From Patescibacteria group bacterium (GTDB lineage: Bacteria; Patescibacteriota; Minisyncoccia; UBA10092): DNA of 54,587 bases. The stretch spans positions 1 to 54,587 of the forward strand of contig JAHJZO010000029.1 of the NCBI GenBank assembly GCA_018826255.1, given 5' to 3'. A program made the position numbers and the translations under genes. Within the stretch, counting starts at the first letter, position 1, and the number at the start of each line of letters is the position of its first letter. Positions 2,740 through 52,565 of the stretch are shown piece by piece. Below the pieces are notes generated by a model. It saw nothing but the letters and a program-made list of their open reading frames with translations, was not told the DNA's origin and did not search any database.

Positions 2740-5081
2740 ATTTTTTTAAAAGGAACTATCCGGTAATTCTTCTGGCAGTTTTATCTCTATTGCTGTTTGG
2801 CCGGATTTTATTTTCCGATAGACTTTTTCCCGGATTTGATCCCCTTTTGATTTTTTATCCCTATTCATTTCATTTTTTCCACTTGCAAAGTTTTTGGACT
2901 TCCGGAATATTAAGCGGATTCAATATTGGCGCGACGCCGGCTACTTTTGCCGGTAATTGGATTTACTATTTTTTTGCCAGTGGCATTGGATTCAAATTTT
3001 TTGACTTTATCACTTTTTATAATATTCTGATTTTCTTTTATTTTTTTCTAACGCTTTCTTTCTCATATCTTTCGGCGAGAGCTTTAGGTTTTGATAAATG
3101 GGTCGCAACTCTGGTTGCTTCCGTTTATATTTTTAGCGCCTATAATTTAAGTTGGATGGTGAATATTGTCACGGCGGCGTCACTTTTTATTTTTCCTGCT
3201 ATTATTTATTTTTTGCTTAAGTTCAAAGAACACCATAAGTGGATTTGGCTTTTTTTAGGAGGACTTGTATTAGGGTCCGGCCTGATAATGGCACATCCCC
3301 AATTTGCTTTAATAGCGGTTTTTGGCGGATTTTTATTTTCGTTATTTTTAACTTTTGAATCGGACTTCAAAAAACCTAAATGGATTTTTCTCGTTGCTTT
3401 TTTAGCGATAAGTTTGATTGGATTAGCATTGGCGGCGTTTCAATTAATCCCTGAATATCAAACAGTTCTGTTAACTCAAAGGGGCGAGGCGCTCAGTTTT
3501 TCAGCATCTCAGGAGTGCGCTTTAATCCCGTTGGATTTTGTCAGATATTTTATCCCGAATTTCAATTTTTTAGTTAGTTGCGAATCTCTTTTATACATGG
3601 GAGTTTTACCTCTAATTCTGGCGATTTTGGCAATTTTTTACTCCAGAACTGAAAAAAAGCGTATTTTTTTCTGGATGTTTTTATTGGTGTTTTCTATTTT
3701 ATTTTCCGTTAAATATTCTCCATTGGCTTGGATTTTTCATCAACTTCCGATTTGGCGAAGTGTCAGATCGCCGGGCCATTTTTTAATGCTTTCCGATTTT
3801 GCCTTGGCTGTTTTAGCCGGATTCGGTTTTAATTGGGTTTTAGAAAATAAAGAAAAGTTTAAAGAATCAAAAATATATAGGTGGATTAAAGGGCTTTTTT
3901 TCGGGGGGTTAGCAATAATCTTGGCTATAAACATCGCAAGTTTTTTTAAAAACAAATTTATAAAATTAGCGACAGATTATTTTGACAAGTACTATTATCA
4001 GAAAACCATCGGCTTGCCTTTAGAAAATTACCATCGCTCTATAGAAAACCTTATTTCCAGTAATTTTTATAATTTCAGTTTTTTAAATAAAGATTTTGCG
4101 ATTCCATTTATTCTAACAGTGTTAGCGTTTTTGGTTTTATATTTTATTTACAAATTTAATAAAACAGCGCTTTTTTACGCCGTTATTCTTAGTGGTTTTA
4201 TTTGGACAGTTTCCAGTCCTATGATTTCATCCGGTTTAACAAGGGATTTTTTCAAAGAAACCGAAATCATCGGATTTTTAAAGGATAAAAAATCGCCACT
4301 TCGTATTTATAGCTTACTGCCAGGCCTATCCACTTATCAATTATTGGCCTTAACTTATCCCGGCGTTACGGAATCCGACCAGAATGAATTTTTTAAAACA
4401 ATGCTTCCGCCTAATTTGAATATTGTTTACGGCTTGGATTCTATAGACGGCTACGATGCTTCTATGCCACGGCGGACAGCAAGAATCCTCGCCGAACTTT
4501 TGAGCGAACGCGCCACGATTGGAAATAAAATTGCGGAAGCTAGATTAAAACCGGAAGAAAAAATAAAAATCTTTGAAAGTCGCAAAAACCTACTTTCAAT
4601 GATGAATGTCAAATATGTGATTTCAGCTTATCCGCTTGATGAAAAATTTTTTAAAAAAGTTTTTGAGATTAAAACAACACGCTTTGAGGTTCCAGTTTAT
4701 ATTTATGAAAATAAAAATGTTTTGCCAAGATTTTATTTCGCGAAAACGGTAAATTCAGTTGAATCCGATGAAATGAAGGTTTTGAACGAAATTTTGGCCC
4801 CGGATATTAATTTCGGAGCCATAACGTTTATAGAATGCGGCGACAATTGCGAGGGCGTTTCTTTAGGAAAAATTATTGACTATGAATATAAAAACGGCTA
4901 TTTGCGGATAAATACTGAAAGTCAAATTGGCGGCTGGCTAGTATTCAGCGAGTCATATGACAATAATTGGCAAGCTCTTATAAACGGCGCGGAAGATTCT
5001 ATTTACAGAGCTAATTATATTTATCAAGCGGTTCAAGTCCCGGCCGGGGGAAATACTGTTGAATTTATTTACAAACCATGA
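2715..5081 (+). CDS. YfhO-family polytopic membrane glycosyltransferase (GT-C-like), paralog 1
   Basis: 788 aa with many hydrophobic spans. C-terminal NNWQALINGAEDSIYRANYIYQAVQVPAGGNTVEFIYKP is typical of YfhO. Overlaps the upstream GT2 gene by 25 nt. Confidence 0.7.
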   Translation: MENDLKKINFFKRNYPVILLAVLSLLLFGRILFSDRLFPGFDPLLIFYPYSFHFFHLQSFWTSGILSGFNIGATPATFAGNWIYYFFASGIGFKFFDFITFYNILIFFYFFLTLSFSYLSARALGFDKWVATLVASVYIFSAYNLSWMVNIVTAASLFIFPAIIYFLLKFKEHHKWIWLFLGGLVLGSGLIMAHPQFALIAVFGGFLFSLFLTFESDFKKPKWIFLVAFLAISLIGLALAAFQLIPEYQTVLLTQRGEALSFSASQECALIPLDFVRYFIPNFNFLVSCESLLYMGVLPLILAILAIFYSRTEKKRIFFWMFLLVFSILFSVKYSPLAWIFHQLPIWRSVRSPGHFLMLSDFALAVLAGFGFNWVLENKEKFKESKIYRWIKGLFFGGLAIILAINIASFFKNKFIKLATDYFDKYYYQKTIGLPLENYHRSIENLISSNFYNFSFLNKDFAIPFILTVLAFLVLYFIYKFNKTALFYAVILSGFIWTVSSPMISSGLTRDFFKETEIIGFLKDKKSPLRIYSLLPGLSTYQLLALTYPGVTESDQNEFFKTMLPPNLNIVYGLDSIDGYDASMPRRTARILAELLSERATIGNKIAEARLKPEEKIKIFESRKNLLSMMNVKYVISAYPLDEKFFKKVFEIKTTRFEVPVYIYENKNVLPRFYFAKTVNSVESDEMKVLNEILAPDINFGAITFIECGDNCEGVSLGKIIDYEYKNGYLRINTESQIGGWLVFSESYDNNWQALINGAEDSIYRANYIYQAVQVPAGGNTVEFIYKP

Positions 5082-37342: not shown

Positions 37343-38341
37343 ATGAAAACTAAAGCGGCGGTTTTAAGAAATATTGGCGGACCATTGATAATTGAGGAAC
37401 TGGAAATCCCCAAATTGGGATTTGGACAGGTTCTTGTAAAAATACTGTATAGCGGACTTTGCCGAAGCCAGCTAAATGAAATTAAAGGATGGAAGGGCAA
37501 AGACCATATTCCTCACCTTTTGGGTCATGAGGCGTCAGGCGAGGTTCTAGAAATTGGAGATAGCGTTTCTAAAGTCAGGCCTGGCGATTATGTCGTATGC
37601 AGTTGGATAAAGGGCGCGGGATTGGATGTTCCGCTTATCAAATATCGCGCGGGCGATGGCAGTGTTGTAAATGCCGGAGCCGTGGCGACATTTTCCCAAT
37701 ACGCGGTTATTTCAGAAAACCGGCTGGTTCCGGTCTCAAGAAAAATTGGCGGTGAAGTGGCGGCCCTTCTGGGTTGCGCCGTGCCAACGGGCGCCGGCGT
37801 GGTTGATCATTCGGATATCCCGCTTGGATCAAAATTAGCCATATTCGGCATTGGGGGCATCGGCGCCAGCGCTTTATTGAAAGCTCTTTCCCTTAAAATA
37901 AGATGCTTTGCTATTGATGTGGCTCAATGGAAATTAGATTGGGCGGAAAAAATTGGAAGTGTTGCTATTCATTTTGATCATGTTAAAAAATATGCGCCCT
38001 TTGATTCTGCGGTTGAATGCAGCGGTAGCAGAACTGCTATGGAGGCAGCTATTAATCTGACTAAGAGTGATGGCGCAGTGATTGTTGCCGGCAACTTGGA
38101 ACCGGGAGAAAAAATTGCTATTGACCCTTTTGATTTAGTAAAAGGTAAAAGGATAAGCGGTACTTGGGGCGGAGGATGTTTTTTGGATGATGATATCCCG
38201 CGCTATGCTTCCGAATATCTCTTCGGTTATCTGTCACTTGAAAATTTAATAACCCGTATTTATTCTTTTGAAAAGATAAATCTGGGATTAGCAGAATTAA
38301 ATTGTGGTGAATTAATCCGGGGAATTGTAAAAATTTCCTGA
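37343..38341 (+). CDS. zinc-type medium-chain alcohol dehydrogenase/reductase
   Basis: GHEASGEVLEIG zinc motif, GLCRSQ, FGIGGIGASAL Rossmann loop. ATG 37343 chosen inside the track ORF. Confidence 0.8.
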   Translation: MKTKAAVLRNIGGPLIIEELEIPKLGFGQVLVKILYSGLCRSQLNEIKGWKGKDHIPHLLGHEASGEVLEIGDSVSKVRPGDYVVCSWIKGAGLDVPLIKYRAGDGSVVNAGAVATFSQYAVISENRLVPVSRKIGGEVAALLGCAVPTGAGVVDHSDIPLGSKLAIFGIGGIGASALLKALSLKIRCFAIDVAQWKLDWAEKIGSVAIHFDHVKKYAPFDSAVECSGSRTAMEAAINLTKSDGAVIVAGNLEPGEKIAIDPFDLVKGKRISGTWGGGCFLDDDIPRYASEYLFGYLSLENLITRIYSFEKINLGLAELNCGELIRGIVKIS

Positions 38342-39725: not shown

Positions 39726-41978
39726 ATGAATTCTAGCATACTATTAAAACTTATAAAATTCGGAATCGGTTTTATCCTATTTATCCCGCTTTACATCGGC
39801 GGTTCTTTTTTCTTTCCTTTTATTTTCCCGAAAATATGGCTTTTTCAATTGGTTACCGAAATTATTTTATTCCTTTATATTATTTTGGCGCTTACGGACG
39901 CGCGTTTTAGGCCAAAATGGAATTTAGCGCTTGGCGCGACAATGTTGCTTACAATAATTTTAATAATCACAAGTTTTACGGGAGTTGACGCTTTCAGGAG
40001 TTTTTGGGGCAATACCGAAAGAATGTCCGGCATAATTACGTGGTTTCACTTTGTGATTTTTGCCATAATTTTGTCCAGCGTTTTAACGACCGAAAAAGAA
40101 TGGCGAAAATTTTTTGGTATAGCGGTTATTGTCAGTGTTTTGGAATTCTTTTATACTCTGGCCCAATATTTTAACGCTTCTTGGGCATGGCTTCCATCAA
40201 GCCAGTCCGGGACGATTGGCAATGCCGATCTTTTGGGAAGTTACGCAATCTTTGGCGCCTTTTTCGCGCTTTATTTGTGGAAAAACTCAAAATCCGATTT
40301 CAAGTATTTTTGGGCAACCGCTTTTTTTCTTAATATCGGCACTCTTTACATAGCAAGCAGCCGAGGCGCCATTATTGGGTTTGTTATCGGGATTATTGCT
40401 TATATGCTTCTTAATATCGCTGATAATCGTGATCTCTGGAAAAAGTGGGCGATTATAGCAGCTATCCCGCTTTTAATCTATGGCTTTTTATGGACAATCA
40501 GAAGTTCCGATTTTATTAACAATAGCGTCCAACTTACCCGGTTAACAAATATTTCCTTGAAAGGCGATACGATTCAGCAACGTTTCACAGAATGGGGGAT
40601 TGCTTGGGACGCATTTTTGGCGCGCCCAATTTTCGGTTTTGGGCCTAATAATTATTTGTATCTTCACAATGCCTTTCTTGATCCAAGGGTTTACGAGCTT
40701 CGCGAAACCAACTTTGATCGCGCTCACAATGCCTATTTGGACTATGCCTCAATGAGCGGAATTTTAGGTCTCTTGGGTTATCTATTTTTGATCGGCGCTT
40801 TATTTTGGGTGTTTGTAAAGAATAAATTATGGATTCCTGCGTCATTAATGGTCGCTTATGCGGTGCAGAGTTTTTTTGTTTTTGATAGCCCAGCAAGTTA
40901 TATTGCGCTTTTTTTGACGATTGGATTTGCCATCTATAAAACTGGAAATTCCAATGACCAAATCCCAAGTTCTCATAAAGATCTCCCGAAGGGAGACAAG
41001 CAAATCCCAAATCCCAAATCTCTAAATTCCCAAACTATTATCGCTCTCTCTCTTGCCGCCTGCATCTTGTCGTTTTATATATTTTGGCAAGTGAGTGTTA
41101 AGCCGGCGGTAGCGAACAACGATTTTGTGAACGCTTTTAATAATCCGTCGCTTGGCGCCGAAGAATCGTTTAATCTGTATAAAAAGGCCGTGGCTCAAGA
41201 AACTCTTGGCACTACGGAATTTCGCAATCAGTATAATCCTTGGCTTCAGAAAAATTTGAACAATTTTAAACCGGAAGAACGTATTACAGTATTAGATTTT
41301 GGTATTAACGAGCTTGAAAAAGAAGTTAAAACTCATCCCATGGTTTTTAGTTATTTAAATCTCGGCCAAATTTATAATTATAAGGCGAGAGGATTTCAGG
41401 ACGAATCGGTGCGGATGGCCTTTTTTGAAAAAGCGGCAAGCGCTTACGATGAAGCCCTGAAACTTTCTCCAAACCGGTTGGAGGTCTTTTATTCTTATTT
41501 ACAACTATCTTTTGACGCTAAAAAATACGATAAAGGCGCAGAGTTGATGGAGCAGGTCGCTTCTCGCGCTCCTAATTATTGGCAAACCCATTGGTATCTC
41601 GGTTTTGCCTATACTATGGCGGGAAAAGATGAAGAAGCGGCGAAGGCGCTGAATAAAGCATTGGCAATTTTCTATAATCACAGCGGCGTGATTATAGAAA
41701 ATGGCAGATTAAAGTATGATTATGACAAAGCTCTAAATTTTGCGCTCGGTTTTGCGCCGAAGCAAGAAATTTTGGGAGCGGTGAATCCCTATATATGGCT
41801 AAAAATGTGGCCAGAACTTTTATTGCTTTATTTATCGGCCGAAAAAGGCGATCCCGAGGATATTCAACTGCACCAATCGCTCGCGCTGGTATACCAAAAT
41901 CTCGGCTTAAACGACAAAGCCAACGAAGAATTAAAAATTGTAAGGGCTTTGTCTGAAAATCAGAGCAGAAGCGAATGA
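39726..41978 (+). CDS. O-antigen ligase/polymerase-like (Wzy_C) membrane protein with C-terminal TPR repeats
   Basis: SSRGAIIGFVIG...FGFGPNNY...AHNAYLDYASMSGILGL. C-terminal TPR-like helical repeats. Confidence 0.8.
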   Translation: MNSSILLKLIKFGIGFILFIPLYIGGSFFFPFIFPKIWLFQLVTEIILFLYIILALTDARFRPKWNLALGATMLLTIILIITSFTGVDAFRSFWGNTERMSGIITWFHFVIFAIILSSVLTTEKEWRKFFGIAVIVSVLEFFYTLAQYFNASWAWLPSSQSGTIGNADLLGSYAIFGAFFALYLWKNSKSDFKYFWATAFFLNIGTLYIASSRGAIIGFVIGIIAYMLLNIADNRDLWKKWAIIAAIPLLIYGFLWTIRSSDFINNSVQLTRLTNISLKGDTIQQRFTEWGIAWDAFLARPIFGFGPNNYLYLHNAFLDPRVYELRETNFDRAHNAYLDYASMSGILGLLGYLFLIGALFWVFVKNKLWIPASLMVAYAVQSFFVFDSPASYIALFLTIGFAIYKTGNSNDQIPSSHKDLPKGDKQIPNPKSLNSQTIIALSLAACILSFYIFWQVSVKPAVANNDFVNAFNNPSLGAEESFNLYKKAVAQETLGTTEFRNQYNPWLQKNLNNFKPEERITVLDFGINELEKEVKTHPMVFSYLNLGQIYNYKARGFQDESVRMAFFEKAASAYDEALKLSPNRLEVFYSYLQLSFDAKKYDKGAELMEQVASRAPNYWQTHWYLGFAYTMAGKDEEAAKALNKALAIFYNHSGVIIENGRLKYDYDKALNFALGFAPKQEILGAVNPYIWLKMWPELLLLYLSAEKGDPEDIQLHQSLALVYQNLGLNDKANEELKIVRALSENQSRSE
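40971..40999. repeat. in-frame GC-rich hairpin module (TCTCCC-GAA-GGGAGA) within the ligase gene
   Basis: Exact 21-mer AGATCTCCCGAAGGGAGACAA (40979-40999) is shared with gap (48640-48660). Flanked by CAAATCCCAA direct repeats at 40959-40968 and 41001-41010. Confidence 0.85.
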
Positions 41979-47507: not shown

Positions 47508-48463
47508 TTTATGACACAATAATTATTGGCGGAGGGCCTGCCGGCGTGGCGGCCGGTGTTTATTCTGCTCGTAAAAAATTAAAAACATTAATTATAACAG
47601 AAAGTTTTGGCGGGCAATCAACGGTTGCCGAGAATATCGAAAATTGGATTGGCGCCAAAAAAATTTCCGGCATTGAATTTGCTAAGATGCTTGAGGAGCA
47701 TATTAGAGCGCAAGAAAATGTTGAAATAAAAATGCCGGAGAACGTAGTTGACATTAAAGAGTTGCCGGGTGACCCGACTGCGCGGGCAGGCTGGGAAGTC
47801 ACAACCGATAAAAATAATTCTTATCAAGCCAGGACTTTAATTGTCACTTCCGGGGGCCGCCGCCGCCGTCTTAATGTTCCGGGCGAGGATAAGTTTAAAG
47901 GCAAGGGGGTTGCTTATTGTTCAACTTGCGACGCTCCGGTTTTTAAAAACAAATCAGTTGCGGTTATCGGCGGCGGCGACACCGGTCTGGAAGCAGCGAT
48001 TGACTTAGCGCAATATGCCGCCAGGGTTTATTTAATAAGCAACAAAGAATCGCTTGTTGGCGACCTTTCAATTCAGGAAATGGTTAAAAATTCTGAAAAG
48101 ATAACTGTTATAGAAAACGCGAATGTTCAAGAAATCTTAGGCGATAAATTTGTTTCCGGCCTCAAGTATTTTGATAAAAACGACAATCAAATTAAAGATT
48201 TAGATGTTGAAGGAATTTTTGTTGAAATTGGATCAACGGCAAATTCAGAATTTATTAAAAAATTAGTGAATACCAATCAAAAAGGAGAAATTATCATTGA
48301 CCATAAGACCGGCGCAACGTCTCGTCCCGGAATTTTTGCGGCCGGCTTCATAACCGACGAAATTTACAAACAAAACAACATTTCTGCCGGGGATGGTGTC
48401 ACGGCCGCCCTTTCGGTGTATAATTATTTGATAAATAATAAAACATGGCAAAAACAAAAATAG
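47504..48463 (+). CDS. trxB: thioredoxin-disulfide reductase
   Basis: IIIGGGPAGVAAGVY FAD motif, CSTCDAPVF redox-active disulfide, VIGGGDTGLEAA NADPH motif. Confidence 0.9.
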   Translation: MIYDTIIIGGGPAGVAAGVYSARKKLKTLIITESFGGQSTVAENIENWIGAKKISGIEFAKMLEEHIRAQENVEIKMPENVVDIKELPGDPTARAGWEVTTDKNNSYQARTLIVTSGGRRRRLNVPGEDKFKGKGVAYCSTCDAPVFKNKSVAVIGGGDTGLEAAIDLAQYAARVYLISNKESLVGDLSIQEMVKNSEKITVIENANVQEILGDKFVSGLKYFDKNDNQIKDLDVEGIFVEIGSTANSEFIKKLVNTNQKGEIIIDHKTGATSRPGIFAAGFITDEIYKQNNISAGDGVTAALSVYNYLINNKTWQKQK

Positions 48464-49500
48464 CGATTAATGGTTTTGGACGGATAGGGCGCATTTTTTT
48501 CCGCCACGCGTTTGAATGCCCTGACGTGGAAATTGTCGCGGTTAACGACCTGACGGAGCCTGAAAATATGGCTTATCTTTTAAAATACGACACGGTTTAT
48601 GGTCCCTATGACAAAAATGTCAAATGTTCTCCCTATGGGAGATCTCCCGAAGGGAGACAAATGTCAAATGTCAAAAATATTTTGGTGGTAGATGGAAAAA
48701 AAATCAGGATACTACAGGAAAAGGACCCTTCAAAACTTCCTTGGAAAGAACTGGGTGTCGATATTGTCGTTGAATCAACCGGTGTTTTTGAGTCAAACGA
48801 GAAAGCGGCGGCGCATTTAACTGCCGGCGCCAAAAGAGTAGTTATTTCCGCTCCCGCGAAAGATGAAATAACTCCAACTGCTACTCCGAATGTCGGAGAA
48901 GAATTTTTAAAAAACGGCAAAATAACCTCTAATGGCTCTTGCACTACCAATGCGGCAACACCAGTGATGGCGGTGATGTCTGAAAATCCCGGAATTAAAA
49001 AAGCCGTTTTAAGCACTGTGCGCGCGTATACCGCATCTCAGGGATTGATTGATGGTTCGGATAAAAAAAATGACTACAGAAGGGCCCGAGCGGCGGCGCA
49101 AAATATTGTTCCTTCAACATCCGGAGTTGCTACGGCGGCTATAAAAGCGTTTCCGTCGCTGAATGGAAAGTTTATCGGCATTGCTTTAAGAGTGCCGATA
49201 ATTTGCGGTTCTATCATTGATTTTACTTTTATCGCTAATCGTTCTACTACGGCTGAAGAAATTAATTTTATTTTCAAAAAAGCGGCGGCCGAAAAACAAT
49301 GGAAAGGAATTTTAACAGTTACCGAAGAGCCGTTAGTTTCAAGCGATATTCTTAAAAATTACCATGGCTCTATCGTGGATCTTTCTATGACAAAAGTTGT
49401 TGACGGGGATTTAGTTAAAGTTTTGTCATGGTACGACAATGAATGGGGGTACGCTTCAATGTTGCTTAAGCATGTTTTGGCGGTAAGTAAATTATTATGA
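48445..49500 (+). CDS. gap: glyceraldehyde-3-phosphate dehydrogenase (type I) carrying a short in-frame insert
   Basis: INGFGRIGRIF. SCTTNA catalytic Cys. WYDNEWGY near the C-terminus. Confidence 0.9.
   Translation: MAKTKIAINGFGRIGRIFFRHAFECPDVEIVAVNDLTEPENMAYLLKYDTVYGPYDKNVKCSPYGRSPEGRQMSNVKNILVVDGKKIRILQEKDPSKLPWKELGVDIVVESTGVFESNEKAAAHLTAGAKRVVISAPAKDEITPTATPNVGEEFLKNGKITSNGSCTTNAATPVMAVMSENPGIKKAVLSTVRAYTASQGLIDGSDKKNDYRRARAAAQNIVPSTSGVATAAIKAFPSLNGKFIGIALRVPIICGSIIDFTFIANRSTTAEEINFIFKKAAAEKQWKGILTVTEEPLVSSDILKNYHGSIVDLSMTKVVDGDLVKVLSWYDNEWGYASMLLKHVLAVSKLL
48628..48660. repeat. two tandem 15-nt hairpin units (TCTCCC-TAT-GGGAGA, TCTCCC-GAA-GGGAGA) in frame within gap
   Basis: Units at 48628-48642 and 48643-48657. 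12-nt direct repeat AATGTCAAATGT at 48616-48627 and 48660-48671. Confidence 0.85.
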
Positions 49501-50108
49501 TGAACAGACAAATAAAAATTGCCGTTATAGTTGCTATAATTTTGATTCTTAGTTCTGGCGGTTATTTTGCTTATACAAAATACTTTTCCGCCAAAACTCC
49601 CGAAATTTCCGAAAACGAAAATATTCAGCCTCCAACGGAAAATAACGCGACATCTACTCCGGAAAAAACAACTCCGAAAGAAATTACGGTTTTACCCGGC
49701 TATAAGTTGTATAAAAATTCAGAATTTGGTTTTGAAATTCAATATCCCGAAACATGGATTGTCGATGAAGAGAATATTGAAAATGTAAGAGGCGAAAACA
49801 CAAAGGCATTTTATTTCAAAAAGCCAAATAGCGATTTACGATTTGCGATATTGCCTAGAGACGGGCTTAGTTATGGTTTACCCAGCAATGGCGCTTCCAG
49901 CGAAGTTCTTATCGGTGGCTCTTCCGGAAACCAGAGAAAATGGACGCTTCCTGATGGCCGCCGTCTTTGGCTTCTCAATCCGCGATACGGATTGTATAAT
50001 TGGTCGGAAGACATCGGCAGAATCGATATTCAATCAAGCGCGACTGACCCGGCAGGCGATATCGCTATTTTTGAAACAATGTTAAATAGTTTTAAATTAT
50101 CAAAATGA
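49497..50108 (+). CDS. membrane-anchored hypothetical protein
   Basis: N-terminal TM helix (IAVIVAIILILSSGGYFAY). No recognisable motif. Confidence 0.5.
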   Translation: MMNRQIKIAVIVAIILILSSGGYFAYTKYFSAKTPEISENENIQPPTENNATSTPEKTTPKEITVLPGYKLYKNSEFGFEIQYPETWIVDEENIENVRGENTKAFYFKKPNSDLRFAILPRDGLSYGLPSNGASSEVLIGGSSGNQRKWTLPDGRRLWLLNPRYGLYNWSEDIGRIDIQSSATDPAGDIAIFETMLNSFKLSK

Positions 50109-50551
50109 TTTACATTGGCGCTGACCACAGGGGCTATAGTTTAAAAGAAGCTATTAAAGGTTATTTATCCGCCCAAGGCGGACCAGCCGCAGGCTGGAAA
50201 GATCTTGGAGCTTTTAAGTATGACCCAGATGACGATTATCCGGATTACGCCTTGGCGGTTGCCCGAAAAGTTGCTGAAGATTCGGAAAACAGCCGCGGAA
50301 TTTTAATTTGCGGTTCAGGCGTCGGCGTTGATATTGTCGCCAATAAAATAAAGAATATTCGTTCGGCGCTTTGTTTTGACGCTAAGCAAGCGCAAGCTGG
50401 TCGCAACGATGACAACACAAACGTCTTGTCGCTTCCGGCAGATTATATTTCCGAAGATTTAGCCAAGGAAATTACCAAAGTATGGCTCGAAACGCCGTTT
50501 TCCGGAGAAGAAAATCACACAAGAAGAATTGAGAAAATTAAAAAGATTTAA
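50105..50551 (+). CDS. rpiB: ribose-5-phosphate isomerase B (RpiB/LacAB family)
   Basis: GADHRG, ILICGSGVGVDIVANK, NDDNTNVLSLP. Confidence 0.85.
   Translation: MIYIGADHRGYSLKEAIKGYLSAQGGPAAGWKDLGAFKYDPDDDYPDYALAVARKVAEDSENSRGILICGSGVGVDIVANKIKNIRSALCFDAKQAQAGRNDDNTNVLSLPADYISEDLAKEITKVWLETPFSGEENHTRRIEKIKKI
50166..50196. repeat. two 15-nt hairpin units in frame within rpiB
   Basis: TATCCGCC-CAA-GGCGGACC (50166-50184), then CAGCC-GCA-GGCTG (50184-50196). Encodes SAQGGPAAG. Confidence 0.8.
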
Positions 50552-51119
50552 GAATCTCAAAATCTTTTTTGAGAGTTTCTTTGGTGCTGTTATTGTAAAT
50601 GGCGACGGCGGGATGATAGAGAGGGATTATTGTCACTTTTTCAGCGGAGAAAATTTTGCCATGCATAATACTGATTGGCTTTAATTCGGATTCCAGTCCG
50701 AAATTTTTTATTATATAGGCCATTGAAAAACGGCCGAGCGTCGCGATTACTTCCGGTTTGATTATTTCAATCTGGCGAATCAAAAAAGGCGAGTAGAATT
50801 CTATTTCTTCCGGTAAAGGGTCTCTGTTAAATGGCGGCCGGTCTTTAACGATATTTGTGACATAGACGTTTTTTCGGTCTAGGTTGATTGATTGCAGAAG
50901 TTCATCTAAAATGCGCCCGGCCGCCCCGCAAAAGGGGCGGCCGGTAAGCGCTTCATTTTTTCCCGGCGCTTCGCCGATGAACATTATTTTTGCGTAATGG
51001 TCGCCCTCGCCGATAACCGGCAAGAAATTATTTTTAATTCTAAAATCATAAAGCGGCGAATTTTTTGCCGCCACAATCTCGTCTTTTATCTTTTTTAGCT
51101 GTTCAGTTCGGTTTTCCAT
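50538..51119 (-). CDS. family-4 uracil-DNA glycosylase
   Basis: GEAPGKNEALTGRPFCGAAG motif. Confidence 0.8.
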   Translation of the reverse strand: MENRTEQLKKIKDEIVAAKNSPLYDFRIKNNFLPVIGEGDHYAKIMFIGEAPGKNEALTGRPFCGAAGRILDELLQSINLDRKNVYVTNIVKDRPPFNRDPLPEEIEFYSPFLIRQIEIIKPEVIATLGRFSMAYIIKNFGLESELKPISIMHGKIFSAEKVTIIPLYHPAVAIYNNSTKETLKKDFEILKSF

Positions 51120-51197
51120 ATTCTAAGATTATAAAATTATTATAATAATTGCAAAAAAACTTGTAGATTTATTTTTTTGGTGTAAAATTAAATTATT

Positions 51198-52565
51198 ATG
51201 AATGGACAGAATGGGCATAATGGAAAAAATATATCCGCCACAGGCGGACCCGCCACAGGCGGACCCGCCTCTGGCGGGGAACCAAAAAAGTTTTTGTTTA
51301 TCTCATTGGAAAGTTTAAGCGGCGATCTTGCGTGGCAGTTGACCAAAGAAGGCCACAAAGTTAAAGCTTACATAAAAGATAAAGGTGATGCCGATGTTTA
51401 TGATGGTTTTATAGAAAAAGTTGATAATTGGGAATCGCACAAAGATTGGGCGGATGTGATTGTTTTTGACGATGTGGAATTTGGAGAAATTGCCGACAAA
51501 TTAAGAAAAAATGGCAAGTTAGTTATTGGCGGCAGTAAATATACCGATGAATTGGAAATGGATAGGGATTTTGGCCAAGGCGAAATGAAAAAATATGGAG
51601 TTAATACTCTGCCTCAGTGGCAATTTTCCAGCTACGATGGAGCCATTGAATTTATTGAAAAAAATCCCGAAAGATATGTTTTTAAACCCAGTGGGAATAC
51701 TCCATCCGCTGGTAAAGGTCTTTTGTTTCTGGGCCAAGAGGAAGATGGAAAGGATTTGCTTGAGCTTTTGAAACAGAACAAAAATTTATGGACTAAAAAA
51801 GTTCCGGTTTTTCAACTTCAAAAATTCGTTTCTGGAGTTGAAGTGGCAGTCGGCGCGTTTTTCAACGGCAAAGATTTTATTTTGCCGATAAATGTCAATT
51901 TTGAACACAAAAGAGTTTTCCCCGGCGACATTGGTCCATTTACCGGCGAAATGGGTACTCTGATGTTTTGGAGCGAGCCCAACAAGTTATTTCATATGAC
52001 TCTTGAGAAAATGAAACCGGCTTTGGTGGAATCCGGCTATATCGGTTATATCGACATAAATTGCATTGTCAATGGCAAGGGGATATATCCTCTGGAATTT
52101 ACGGCGCGTTTTGGCTATCCGACTATTCAGATTCAATCTGAAGGAATAACAATGCCTACGGGCGAATGGCTTTATAAATTGGCGAGCGGAGAGAGTTTTG
52201 AATTGAAAACCAAAAAAGGTTTTCAGGTCGGGGTGAGAGTTAATGTCCCCACACTTTTTGTAAAATCCACGGACAAAGAAACCATTGAAATGTATCGGGA
52301 TCTGCCGATTCTTTTTAAGAAACCGGATAATTTAGACGGAATTCACATTGAAGATGTTAAAAAAGAAGATGGCTCATGGCGAGTTGCCGGCGTATCTGGT
52401 TGCTTAATGGTCGTTACCGGTTCTGGCACCACTGTTAACGAAGCGAGACAGCAGGTTTATTCCAGAATAAAGAACATAATGGTTCAGGATATGTTTTATC
52501 GAACTGATATCGGGCTGAAATGGAACACCGATAGCGACAAGCTCCAAACTTGGGGTTATTTATGA
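51198..52565 (+). CDS. PurD-like ATP-grasp protein (phosphoribosylamine-glycine ligase-like) with repeat-built N-terminal extension
   Basis: LAWQL and EHKRVFPGDIGPFTGEMG resemble the PurD motifs ALAWKL and DHKR...GPNTGGMG. Confidence 0.6.
   Translation: MNGQNGHNGKNISATGGPATGGPASGGEPKKFLFISLESLSGDLAWQLTKEGHKVKAYIKDKGDADVYDGFIEKVDNWESHKDWADVIVFDDVEFGEIADKLRKNGKLVIGGSKYTDELEMDRDFGQGEMKKYGVNTLPQWQFSSYDGAIEFIEKNPERYVFKPSGNTPSAGKGLLFLGQEEDGKDLLELLKQNKNLWTKKVPVFQLQKFVSGVEVAVGAFFNGKDFILPINVNFEHKRVFPGDIGPFTGEMGTLMFWSEPNKLFHMTLEKMKPALVESGYIGYIDINCIVNGKGIYPLEFTARFGYPTIQIQSEGITMPTGEWLYKLASGESFELKTKKGFQVGVRVNVPTLFVKSTDKETIEMYRDLPILFKKPDNLDGIHIEDVKKEDGSWRVAGVSGCLMVVTGSGTTVNEARQQVYSRIKNIMVQDMFYRTDIGLKWNTDSDKLQTWGYL
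51232..51279. repeat. three tandem 15-nt hairpin units in frame at the 5' end of the ATP-grasp gene
   Basis: CCGCCACAGGCGGAC x2 then CCGCCTCTGGCGGGG. The first unit, TATCCGCC-ACA-GGCGGACC, matches the rpiB unit arms exactly. Confidence 0.85.

Follow-up and report, generated by a model that had tools for sequence, protein, structure and literature searches.

The window analysed here is the whole 54,587-nucleotide stretch of contig JAHJZO010000029.1 (assembly GCA_018826255.1) from a Patescibacteria group bacterium; it is about 40% GC and its best gene matches are Patescibacteria. On the + strand, at positions 50105-50551, it carries rpiB, the gene for ribose-5-phosphate isomerase B (Pfam PF02502 LacAB_rpiB, 1.1e-44, with relatives in the PDB), whose closest named relatives are the RpiB proteins of a "Patescibacteria group bacterium" (86%) and of Candidatus Azambacteria (74-76%). 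Within this gene, positions 50160-50200 read GTTATTTATCCGCCCAAGGCGGACCAGCCGCAGGCTGGAAA and contain two adjoining hairpins, TATCCGCC-CAA-GGCGGACC (50166-50184) and CAGCC-GCA-GGCTG (50184-50196), whose sequences and coordinates were given exactly in an earlier note on this DNA. Both hairpins, one pair longer than first noted, are perfect 6-bp stems with 3-nt loops. Unit 1, TCCGCC-CAA-GGCGGA (50168-50182, + strand), has a loop of the common NNA type and supplies the codons of SAQGG, while unit 2, CCAGCC-GCA-GGCTGG (50183-50197, + strand), abuts it and supplies those of PAAGW, the segment being read as L-SAQGG-PAAGW with exactly five codons for each hairpin. The predicted fold has an energy of –12.7 kcal/mol as single-stranded DNA (z –4.4 against shuffles) and of –19.4 as RNA (z –4.1). 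On the comparisons presented below, the segment very probably belongs to a mobile palindromic repeat that is GC-rich and very small, a double hairpin of 30 nt, of which it is a single copy.

The hairpin arms are not confined to rpiB. The sequence CCGCCNNNGGCGG has four exact matches in the window against 0.07 expected, a number reached in 0 of 100 shuffles, and all four lie in rpiB or in an ATP-grasp gene downstream, where the TATCCGCC/GGCGGACC arms recur at 51232-51250, at the place where the earlier note had found arms identical to those in rpiB. Likewise, in 493 kb of sequence fetched via RpiB homology alone, 42 doublets were counted against 3.7 expected, about one per 13 kb, so that the shared arms are clearly above chance.

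The comparison of orthologs (L labels denote loci compared with the window, P labels RpiB homologs) indicates how the segment came to lie in rpiB. Most of about 80 RpiB orthologs are without it, reading ...YL-xELN-YxW-EDLGA, and those that have the residues use the same palindromic codons; the encoding of these residues by non-palindromic codons, named beforehand as the outcome that would speak against an insert, was not found in the alignment. An empty site, GAT TTT^GAA GAT, is present in L167 and L155; at the same point L001/L132/L179 and L148/L150 have exactly 30 additional nt, with TCCGCCCGAGGCGGACCAGCCTTGGGCTGG as the core and no target-site duplication; L130 has a variant core, TCCGTCAAAGGCGGATCCGCCTCCGGCGGA, at this site. 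In the window, in L126/L127 (RpiB 93% identical) and in L003, the core stands directly after TAT TT(A/G), and the window lineage has 27-30 nt of core where its close relative L004 has 18-21 nt, CAAGAGTTGAATTACGCT(TGG), in an uninterrupted stretch reading CAA GAG TTG AAT TAC GCT TGG. The length excess of about four residues over the Escherichia coli protein, estimated earlier by eye, was of the right order, as it amounts to three residues here relative to the closest element-free orthologs (nine replace six) and to ten in the filled RpiB of other lineages. The proposal of a short palindromic insert or replacement was borne out as well, with insertion in related lineages and replacement in that of the window. 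Since L003 has TAT TTG plus the core, as expected from a GCAGAGTTATCTAATGATTTT deletion out of the L001 arrangement, the simplest history would be an L001-type 30-nt insertion followed by a 21-nt in-frame deletion trimming the loop; alternatively, the insertion itself might have replaced the 18-21 nt. Filled states occur in at least four clades of a rough neighbour-joining RpiB tree, so that either the site was hit repeatedly or the segment was exchanged. There is also a second rpiB site, with CCAGCC-NGA-GGCTGG/CCAGCC-CTG-GGCTGG in another frame in L148, L155 and L167 (DQPEAGQPWAGN vs EDPENN). Separately, the RpiB homolog P0083 carries a different insertion of 33 residues, LPILSSTKSKMQNRGSSISRPNLKDLGEIGT, which is like the read-through upstream of P0120 (...NLEDLGKIGINT); this likeness suggests another, longer repeat family in these genomes.

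In an AlphaFold model of the window RpiB, built on the ortholog alignment (mean pLDDT 89), S22-A23 form the end of helix alpha-1, Q24-G30 are coil and W31-K32-D33 belong to strand beta-2, the last codon of the element, TGG, occupying the W/F position of the orthologs at which this strand starts. The lowest-confidence block of the model is at residues 21-30 and takes in this coil. The element is thereby mapped, in the model, to the alpha-1/beta-2 surface loop, and since it takes up a helix end and coil in an otherwise confident prediction, its read-through translation as a surface loop is structurally plausible. The rpiB insert would then be transcribed and translated as a harmless loop, SAQGGPAAG, and its translation would yield a peptide such as GYLSAQGGPAAGWK.

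The family to which the rpiB segment belongs was delimited by a scan with the pattern TCCGCCNNNGGCGGACCNGCCNNNGGC in one genome per species, which returned at least 120 loci. Position weights were taken, at the positions unconstrained by the pattern, from the 105 unique copies among the matches listed in loci below 60% GC, and these show T at –2 in 95/105, T at –1 in 79/105 and A at +2 in 77/105, as well as A as the last base of loop 1 and T as the first base of loop 2 (99/105 each). The consensus is TT^[TCCGCC NNA GGCGGA][CC(A/C)GCC TNN GGC(T/G)GG]^NA, in which, in the same matches, positions 17 and 27 covary (CCAGCC/GGCTGG in 44 copies, CCCGCC/GGCGGG in 49). The NNA loops and the TNN loops are drawn from reverse complements of one set, and the doublet can thus be described as one unit followed by an inverted unit. 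Across the two loops, pairing among the matches listed is restricted to positions 6-23 and 8-21; complementarity is found at 6-23 in 70/106 copies (34.8 expected) but not at 7-22. The folding accordingly also gives a long hairpin as an alternative structure. A palindrome spanning the whole element was considered and rejected, as an exact reverse complement of loop 1 stands in loop 2 no more often than by chance (14 copies against 10.7). The stems found in the 493-kb sample are TCCGCC, CCCGCC, CCAGCC, TCAGCC, TCCCCC and TCTCCC, and chimeric doublets combine them (TCCCCC+TCCGCC in L136 and L140, TTCCCC+TCTCCC in L161). The CCGCC and the TCTCCC/TCCCCC types are therefore modules of one superfamily: the earlier note was right that the rpiB hairpins are of the same kind as the TCTCCC family, while its separation of the two into distinct sequence families does not fully hold in view of these chimeras. 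Similarly, the 15-nt GC hairpin units it described are real, and yet the unit that is inserted is, as judged from the alignments, the 30-nt doublet of two such hairpins and not the single one. Doublets number 25 against 18 apparent singles, about half of which are halves of degenerate doublets, and the only triplet in this tally is the array in the ATP-grasp gene of the window. Larger arrangements around the core were also seen. In Omnitrophota and Dehalococcoidia (L045, L057, L066, L071, L094 and L120) it often forms the tip of a longer, imperfect inverted repeat that measures about 100 nt, or else is enclosed by opposed heptamer runs, the whole making a larger composite palindrome, and L041 (725-855) and L089 have tandem repeats of about 100 nt with one core each, in Lentisphaerales and Kiritimatiellae, the L089 copies being about 99 nt apart and both on the minus strand.

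Insertion without target-site duplication is seen at further sites. The ATP-grasp gene of the window (GARS_A/GARS_C in Pfam, GARS-like; 51198-52565) has an array of three units on the + strand at 51234-51278, TCCGCC-ACA-GGCGGA / CCCGCC-ACA-GGCGGA / CCCGCC-TCT-GGCGGG, read as SATGG PATGG PASGG, a standard doublet to which a 15-nt tandem duplication has added one unit. The site is empty, as ATT^GAACCA, in nine orthologs and filled in the window, L003, L004 and L126, with two units in L003 and L004; L133 has an independent copy upstream of the ATP-grasp start codon. In L126 (2803-2860), the closest relative of the window, a 21-nt segment, about CCGCCTGAACATAGGGCAGGT, is nested in hairpin 2 of the array and converts PASGG to PPPEHRAGVSGG; it may represent a second kind of mini-insertion. 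In the UDG gene (50538-51119, – strand), alignment places an empty target, ggctt^taattc, at 50681-50682 of the window; L004 is likewise empty, whereas L001, L003 and L143 have a clean 30-nt TCCGCCAAAGGCGGATCCGCCTCTGGCGGA. Outside protein genes, a 5S-like pseudocopy beside an intact 5S has the insertion at GGAAGTT^AAGCC and tRNA D-loop-like fragments have it at GCTCAGTT^GGTTAGAGC, both clean and free of target duplication. As these insertions lie in partial or pseudo copies, they establish clean insertion and do not address the tolerance of functional RNAs. Copies in partial tRNA or 5S duplicates adjoining an intact gene were noted in L059 (2440-2663), L042 (590-700), L107 (about 5000-5060) and L065 (2456-2600), with the insertion exactly after GTT or ATT, within the D-loop or the 5S sequence.

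Other copies in the window belong to the TCTCCC type or appear to have decayed. The GAPDH gene has a doublet, TCTCCC-TAT-GGGAGA / TCTCCC-GAA-GGGAGA (48628-48657, + strand; SPYGR SPEGR), within a 42-nt insertion missing from L003 and L004 and flanked by CAAATGT heptamers (about 48614-48627 and 48658-48675). As heptamers and hairpins are jointly missing from the orthologs, they look like one composite insertion. A single TCTCCC-GAA-GGGAGA unit lies in a Wzy_C/TPR gene (40982-40996, + strand, frame 2, LPKGD), 5' of a CAAATCC array (41001-41034, x4.6). The window holds two longer heptamer arrays, this one and CAAATGT x2.6 (48658-48675), both directly 3' of TCTCCC-type units, and a third, marginal one, GTAAAAG x2.1 (38138-38152). 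Short tandem heptamers abut both TCTCCC loci inside the window and many CCGCC copies outside it. In a hypothetical gene (49497-50108), TCAGCC-TCC-AACGGA (49625-49639, + strand) is tentatively listed as a doublet relic, probably a product of decay, since L003, L004, L128 and L167 have an intact CCAGCC-AGA-GGCTGG/TCCGCC-NNN-GGCGGA at this site. Across 48445-52565 the identity ranks of the relatives are discordant, with GAPDH at 87% to L004 and 75% to L003, RpiB at 86% to L003 and 77% to L004, and the ATP-grasp protein at 96% and 94% to the two, which suggests recombination among closely related lineages.

According to the labels carried by the records, the hosts among the matches listed are about 50 Patescibacteria of many classes, 17 Omnitrophota, 11 Planctomycetota, 6 Chloroflexota, 10 other members of the Planctomycetota-Verrucomicrobiota-Chlamydiota (PVC) group (Kiritimatiellota, Lentisphaerota and Moanabacter), 14 metagenome-assembled genomes labelled Pseudomonadota (mostly Gammaproteobacteria) and a small remainder. 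Chance would seem to account for about three records of actinobacteria and for some further high-GC matches in which the second unit fails to close as a hairpin. Several listed loci lie in contigs of 150-650 kb, so that mis-binning is no explanation for the cross-phylum spread. Judging by these records, the element is not peculiar to this genome, and several phyla carry members of the family. In groundwater, Patescibacteria and Omnitrophota are reported to exchange genes (PMC12455944), which offers a possible route of spread across phyla. Viruses are unlikely vectors, with only two matches in 2.9 million viral contigs. These two IMG/VR copies are typical ones (L206, 4944-4973; L207, 3343-3372), of which one has a TTT^CA flank and is apparently noncoding, and the second lies in frame 0 of an ORF (open reading frame) of 1010 residues in a contig of 69% GC.

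The location of the copies was analysed for 97 copies among the matches listed in loci below 55% GC, a copy being taken as confidently coding when it lies inside a long ORF; all counts in this paragraph refer to that sample. Of these, 52 are confidently coding and 45 are noncoding or ambiguous, a share far above the noncoding expectation from the coding density of such genomes, so that the DNA sequence and not the peptide is primary. Among the coding copies, 38 are in frame 0 (30 on the same strand, 8 on the opposite one; p = 6e-9 against one third), nine in frame 2 and five in frame 1, and 38 have the coding-strand orientation against 14 with the opposite one (p = 0.001). Frame 0 is the sole frame in which the palindrome on either strand encodes [S/P]-A-x-G-[G/W], a run of small, flexible residues, and from its excess we infer that selection filters insertions by frame. 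The host proteins are unrelated to one another and include RpiB, UDG, the ATP-grasp protein, GAPDH, ClpB, a class I aminoacyl-tRNA synthetase and RecG.

Once inserted, the element changes little. At orthologous sites filled in different lineages, the cores have 5/240 differences and the flanks 172/960 (Fisher p = 1e-12), about nine-fold fewer in the cores, in eight comparisons whose pairs are partly non-independent and may include recombination; within these cores the stems have 2/192 differences and the loops 3/48. For L001 and L148 in rpiB, 30/30 bases of the core agree, the rare loop CGA among them, as against 89/120 bases of the flanks, and the UDG cores of L001, L003 and L143 are identical at 30/30. 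The stems have 0, 1, 2 and 3 mismatches in 21, 12, 4 and 6 copies, respectively. At the orthologous filled sites synonymous positions inside the cores are frozen, GC-rich codons are retained although the genome is AT-rich, and copies with two or three stem mismatches are scarce, all of which points to maintenance of the hairpins; the stems would owe their integrity to selection on the structure or else to the way in which the element propagates. The relic at 49625-49639 and L132, which has two core changes on otherwise identical flanks, show that this maintenance is not absolute.

Taken together, copy-and-insert of a defined 30-nt sequence, the lack of target-site duplication, a TT^NA preference, the exchange of 15-nt units, unit duplication and nesting are evident from the aligned loci, and on the reading favoured here the doublet spreads in this way, preferably after TT. 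HUH/Y1 chemistry is known to transpose DNA with hairpin ends, adjacent to a fixed short motif and with no duplication. On this basis, insertion via single-stranded DNA hairpins by a trans-acting HUH/Y1-type enzyme (an IS200/IS605- or RAYT-like cut-and-rejoin reaction) or by a comparable structure-specific activity is a tentative proposal, to which we give somewhat less than even weight. Insertion might instead proceed through RNA, in the manner suggested for the small dispersed repeats (SDR) of cyanobacteria and the double-hairpin elements (DHE) of mitochondria, or through structure-specific repair. More speculative, and in our view rather doubtful, is the idea that a 30-nt element crossing phyla is actively maintained inside essential genes by dedicated machinery or a host factor recognising paired mini-hairpins, and is exchanged by ultra-small episymbiont-like bacteria (Patescibacteria, Omnitrophota) with phyla that occur alongside them.

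Several observations weigh against a mobile repeat of this kind. An all-against-all comparison of the 2,122 ORFs of the listed 8-kb loci gave no transposase or partner gene, a result for these loci, as no genome-wide search for TnpA was made. The recurrent ORFs among the matches listed are tRNA-derived pseudo-ORFs, housekeeping genes and one IS4-like DDE transposase, which is repeated in a single Moanabacter genome and for which the element is apparently a passenger. Known IS200/IS605 elements insert with strand bias, and the present element has no orientation bias with respect to local GC skew (58:54) or gene-strand mass (57:55) among the matches listed, although its near-symmetry weakens this test; moreover, its hairpins abut the junctions without a linker, unlike IS200/IS605 ends. 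At the rpiB site of the window itself the alignment points to a replacement rather than a clean insertion, and the loops there, CAA and GCA, resemble the L004 codons CAA and GCT, a likeness that could hint at a local origin, though CAA is a common loop. The strong conservation and the few decayed copies are, as far as the sequences tell, unlike a neutral selfish insertion, and translation of the rpiB insert is something we infer from a predicted loop. As to the Moanabacter copies, the element has fixed flanks, GGTTTAAGGTTC...CAGGTTTCGGGTTTTAGG, in Candidatus Moanabacter L020, L030, L092, L096 and L114, where a unit of about 2.3 kb, present in multiple copies and encoding the IS4-like DDE transposase, includes it; it probably spread as a passenger of this insertion sequence.

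The same conservation supports a different explanation, in which the double hairpin is a functional cis-element, a DNA or RNA structural signal retained by selection and spread by recombination. It might serve as the binding site of a conserved host factor, as a hairpin that stabilises mRNA or takes part in its processing, as a signal in priming or topology, or as a sequence of the DNA-uptake type. Orthologous copies identical at 30/30 in flanks of about 75% identity (L001/L148 in rpiB; L001, L003 and L143 in UDG), the 2/192 stem differences against 172/960 in the flanks, GC-rich codons persisting in a genome of about 40% GC with few decayed copies, and sequence conservation across phyla all agree with it, and the 6-23 complementarity and 17-27 covariation point to structural constraint. 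We nevertheless regard it as unlikely, if deserving of serious attention, since presence and absence vary among close relatives in essential genes, at positions without an obvious shared purpose, since copies lie in pseudo-tRNA and pseudo-5S fragments, and since at least one orthologous site in the window looks decayed. The copies lack a T-run, and thus are no terminators, and have no orientation bias; their density of about one per 13 kb is far under that of known uptake sequences, and they are gained as 30-nt insertions, not by substitutions.

The remaining explanations place the origin of the hairpins in the gene, the protein or the data. Local mutation, by template switching or by hairpin-primed synthesis and slippage, could account for the 15-nt tandem duplication by which the ATP-grasp array differs from its relatives and for the likeness of the rpiB loops to L004 codons. 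The similarity across genes would then be convergent, through palindromes of tolerated Gly/Ala/Ser/Pro codons, and by the genetic code GC-rich palindromes in frame 0 necessarily encode S/P/A-x-G. However, the 24 stem bases, the loop bases and the TT^NA flanks are found again outside coding DNA, in copies read in other frames and in distantly related phyla, clean 30-nt insertions lie in 5S- and tRNA-like sequence free of codon constraint, and the same stems stand in different genes of one genome; this cross-locus identity largely refutes the explanation, which we hold to be very improbable. Equally little credence is given to a selected peptide insertion, SAxGGPAxGW acquired as a flexible linker, processing site or interaction motif. 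The frame-0 preference (38/52) and the coding-strand bias (38 against 14, p = 0.001) would fit it, but 45/97 copies are noncoding or ambiguous and 14/52 are in other frames, encoding unrelated peptides such as FRRRRTRLRR and PPKADQPLAG (all among the matches listed), the host proteins are functionally unrelated, and frozen synonymous sites are unexplained by selection at the protein level. An assembly or sequencing artefact can for practical purposes be dismissed; all element-bearing contigs come from metagenome-assembled or single-cell assemblies, in itself nothing specific, whereas the same insertion with lineage-specific loops is found at orthologous sites of independent assemblies (ENA, NCBI and JGI; Hainich groundwater, from which the closest relatives of the window come, and other groundwater), always in frame at these sites and inside contigs of up to 647 kb.

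Were the rpiB segment indeed a copy of a mobile repeat, the lower size limit of self-propagating bacterial DNA would be 30 nt, among the smallest mobile units, and streamlined genomes of about 1 Mb would bear such elements inside core metabolic and repair genes. With a defined consensus, TT^NA targets and several empty/filled pairs, the family would offer a system for an old question raised by Rickettsia palindromic elements (RPE), SDR and DHE, namely how non-coding hairpin repeats move and come to be identical across species. In practice, the inserts give rise to indels in marker proteins that are specific to a lineage and can mislead alignment, phylogenetic analysis and gene calling where candidate-phyla genomes are concerned, and they could mark genetic exchange between Patescibacteria, Omnitrophota and their neighbours. 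No description of the element was found in the searchable literature, its sequence and peptide motifs included; it may have been published elsewhere.

Among known systems, repetitive extragenic palindromes (REP), with their composite forms BIME (bacterial interspersed mosaic elements) and REPIN (REP doublets forming hairpins), are short imperfect palindromes, often in inverted doublets, mobilised by RAYT (REP-associated tyrosine) transposases of the Y1 HUH type, and are believed to transpose as hairpins of single-stranded DNA that leave no target duplication (PMC3116915; PMC3733652). They are extragenic and species-specific, have a GTAG or CGTC head and flank the RAYT gene (PMC3733652; PMC3116915). 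Assignment to REP/REPIN was rejected, as the 105 copies weighed above have no GTAG or CGTC at the head, the 5' flank being TTT and the 3' flank NA, and as the copies are not extragenic, 52/97 lying in long ORFs and those of the window in rpiB, the ATP-grasp gene and GAPDH; unlike REP, the sequence is also common to several phyla. Elements derived from IS200/IS605 are recognised by insertion 3' of a fixed short target, without duplication and with a strand bias tied to replication; the present element has no duplication and a 5' TT preference, together with no orientation bias relative to GC skew (58:54) and no subterminal linkers. A miniature inverted-repeat transposable element (MITE) does not fit, in that target duplication is absent from the four CCGCC-type empty/filled pairs (rpiB, ATP-grasp, UDG and 5S-like); the TCTCCC-type copies do have 7-nt direct repeats at their flanks. 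Intrinsic terminators were discarded on account of the NA 3' flank without T enrichment and of the location of most copies inside genes (among the matches listed), and DNA uptake or uptake signal sequences (DUS/USS) on account of the density of about one per 13 kb, of gains as 30-nt insertions and of a sequence that crosses phyla. A CRISPR-like array was rejected too, as was a described RNA family, Rfam 15 giving no match in the window and none at the element positions in 18 loci; ARAGORN reported no tRNA in the window.

Closer parallels are found in three other groups of elements. RPE, reportedly described by Ogata et al. in 2000 ('Selfish DNA in protein-coding genes of Rickettsia'), are said to lie in frame in unrelated, often essential genes as well as in noncoding DNA, to be translated as surface-exposed extra segments whose presence varies among relatives, and to be of about 100-150 bp and confined to Rickettsia. 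The present element is, like them, in frame in unrelated protein-coding genes and missing from orthologs, but it has 30 nt in two perfect mini-hairpins, is GC-rich in AT-rich genomes and spans several phyla. The SDR of Nostoc and related cyanobacteria, attributed to Elhai et al. in 2008, are reported to be of 21-27 nt, with hairpin potential, compensatory changes and nested insertions, often embedded in tandem heptamers, with no known transposase and essentially in one cyanobacterial subgroup; in-frame insertion into housekeeping genes is reportedly no hallmark of theirs. Judged by these descriptions, the two have a similar architecture and heptamer context, with one nested 21-nt insertion here (L126), and differ in hosts and in size (30 nt here). 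In mitochondria, the DHE of chytrid fungi and Schizosaccharomyces have copies identical across species (PMC10085805), and hairpin elements and GC clusters of sponge and yeast mitochondrial DNA insert without flanking duplications (PMC2800124); all are GC-rich units in AT-rich compact genomes, found in rRNA genes and sometimes in coding sequence (PMC10085805; PMC2800124). Two adjacent GC-rich hairpins and the lack of target duplication are features that the present element shares with DHE, as an analogy and not as membership, and for both the identity across species raises the question of purifying selection versus horizontal transfer. DHE are eukaryotic, organellar and usually longer, whereas the present family is bacterial, crosses phyla and mostly keeps the frame. 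By analogy, then, the element resembles RPE in its behaviour, SDR, as these are reported, in its size and heptamer context, and DHE in its architecture.

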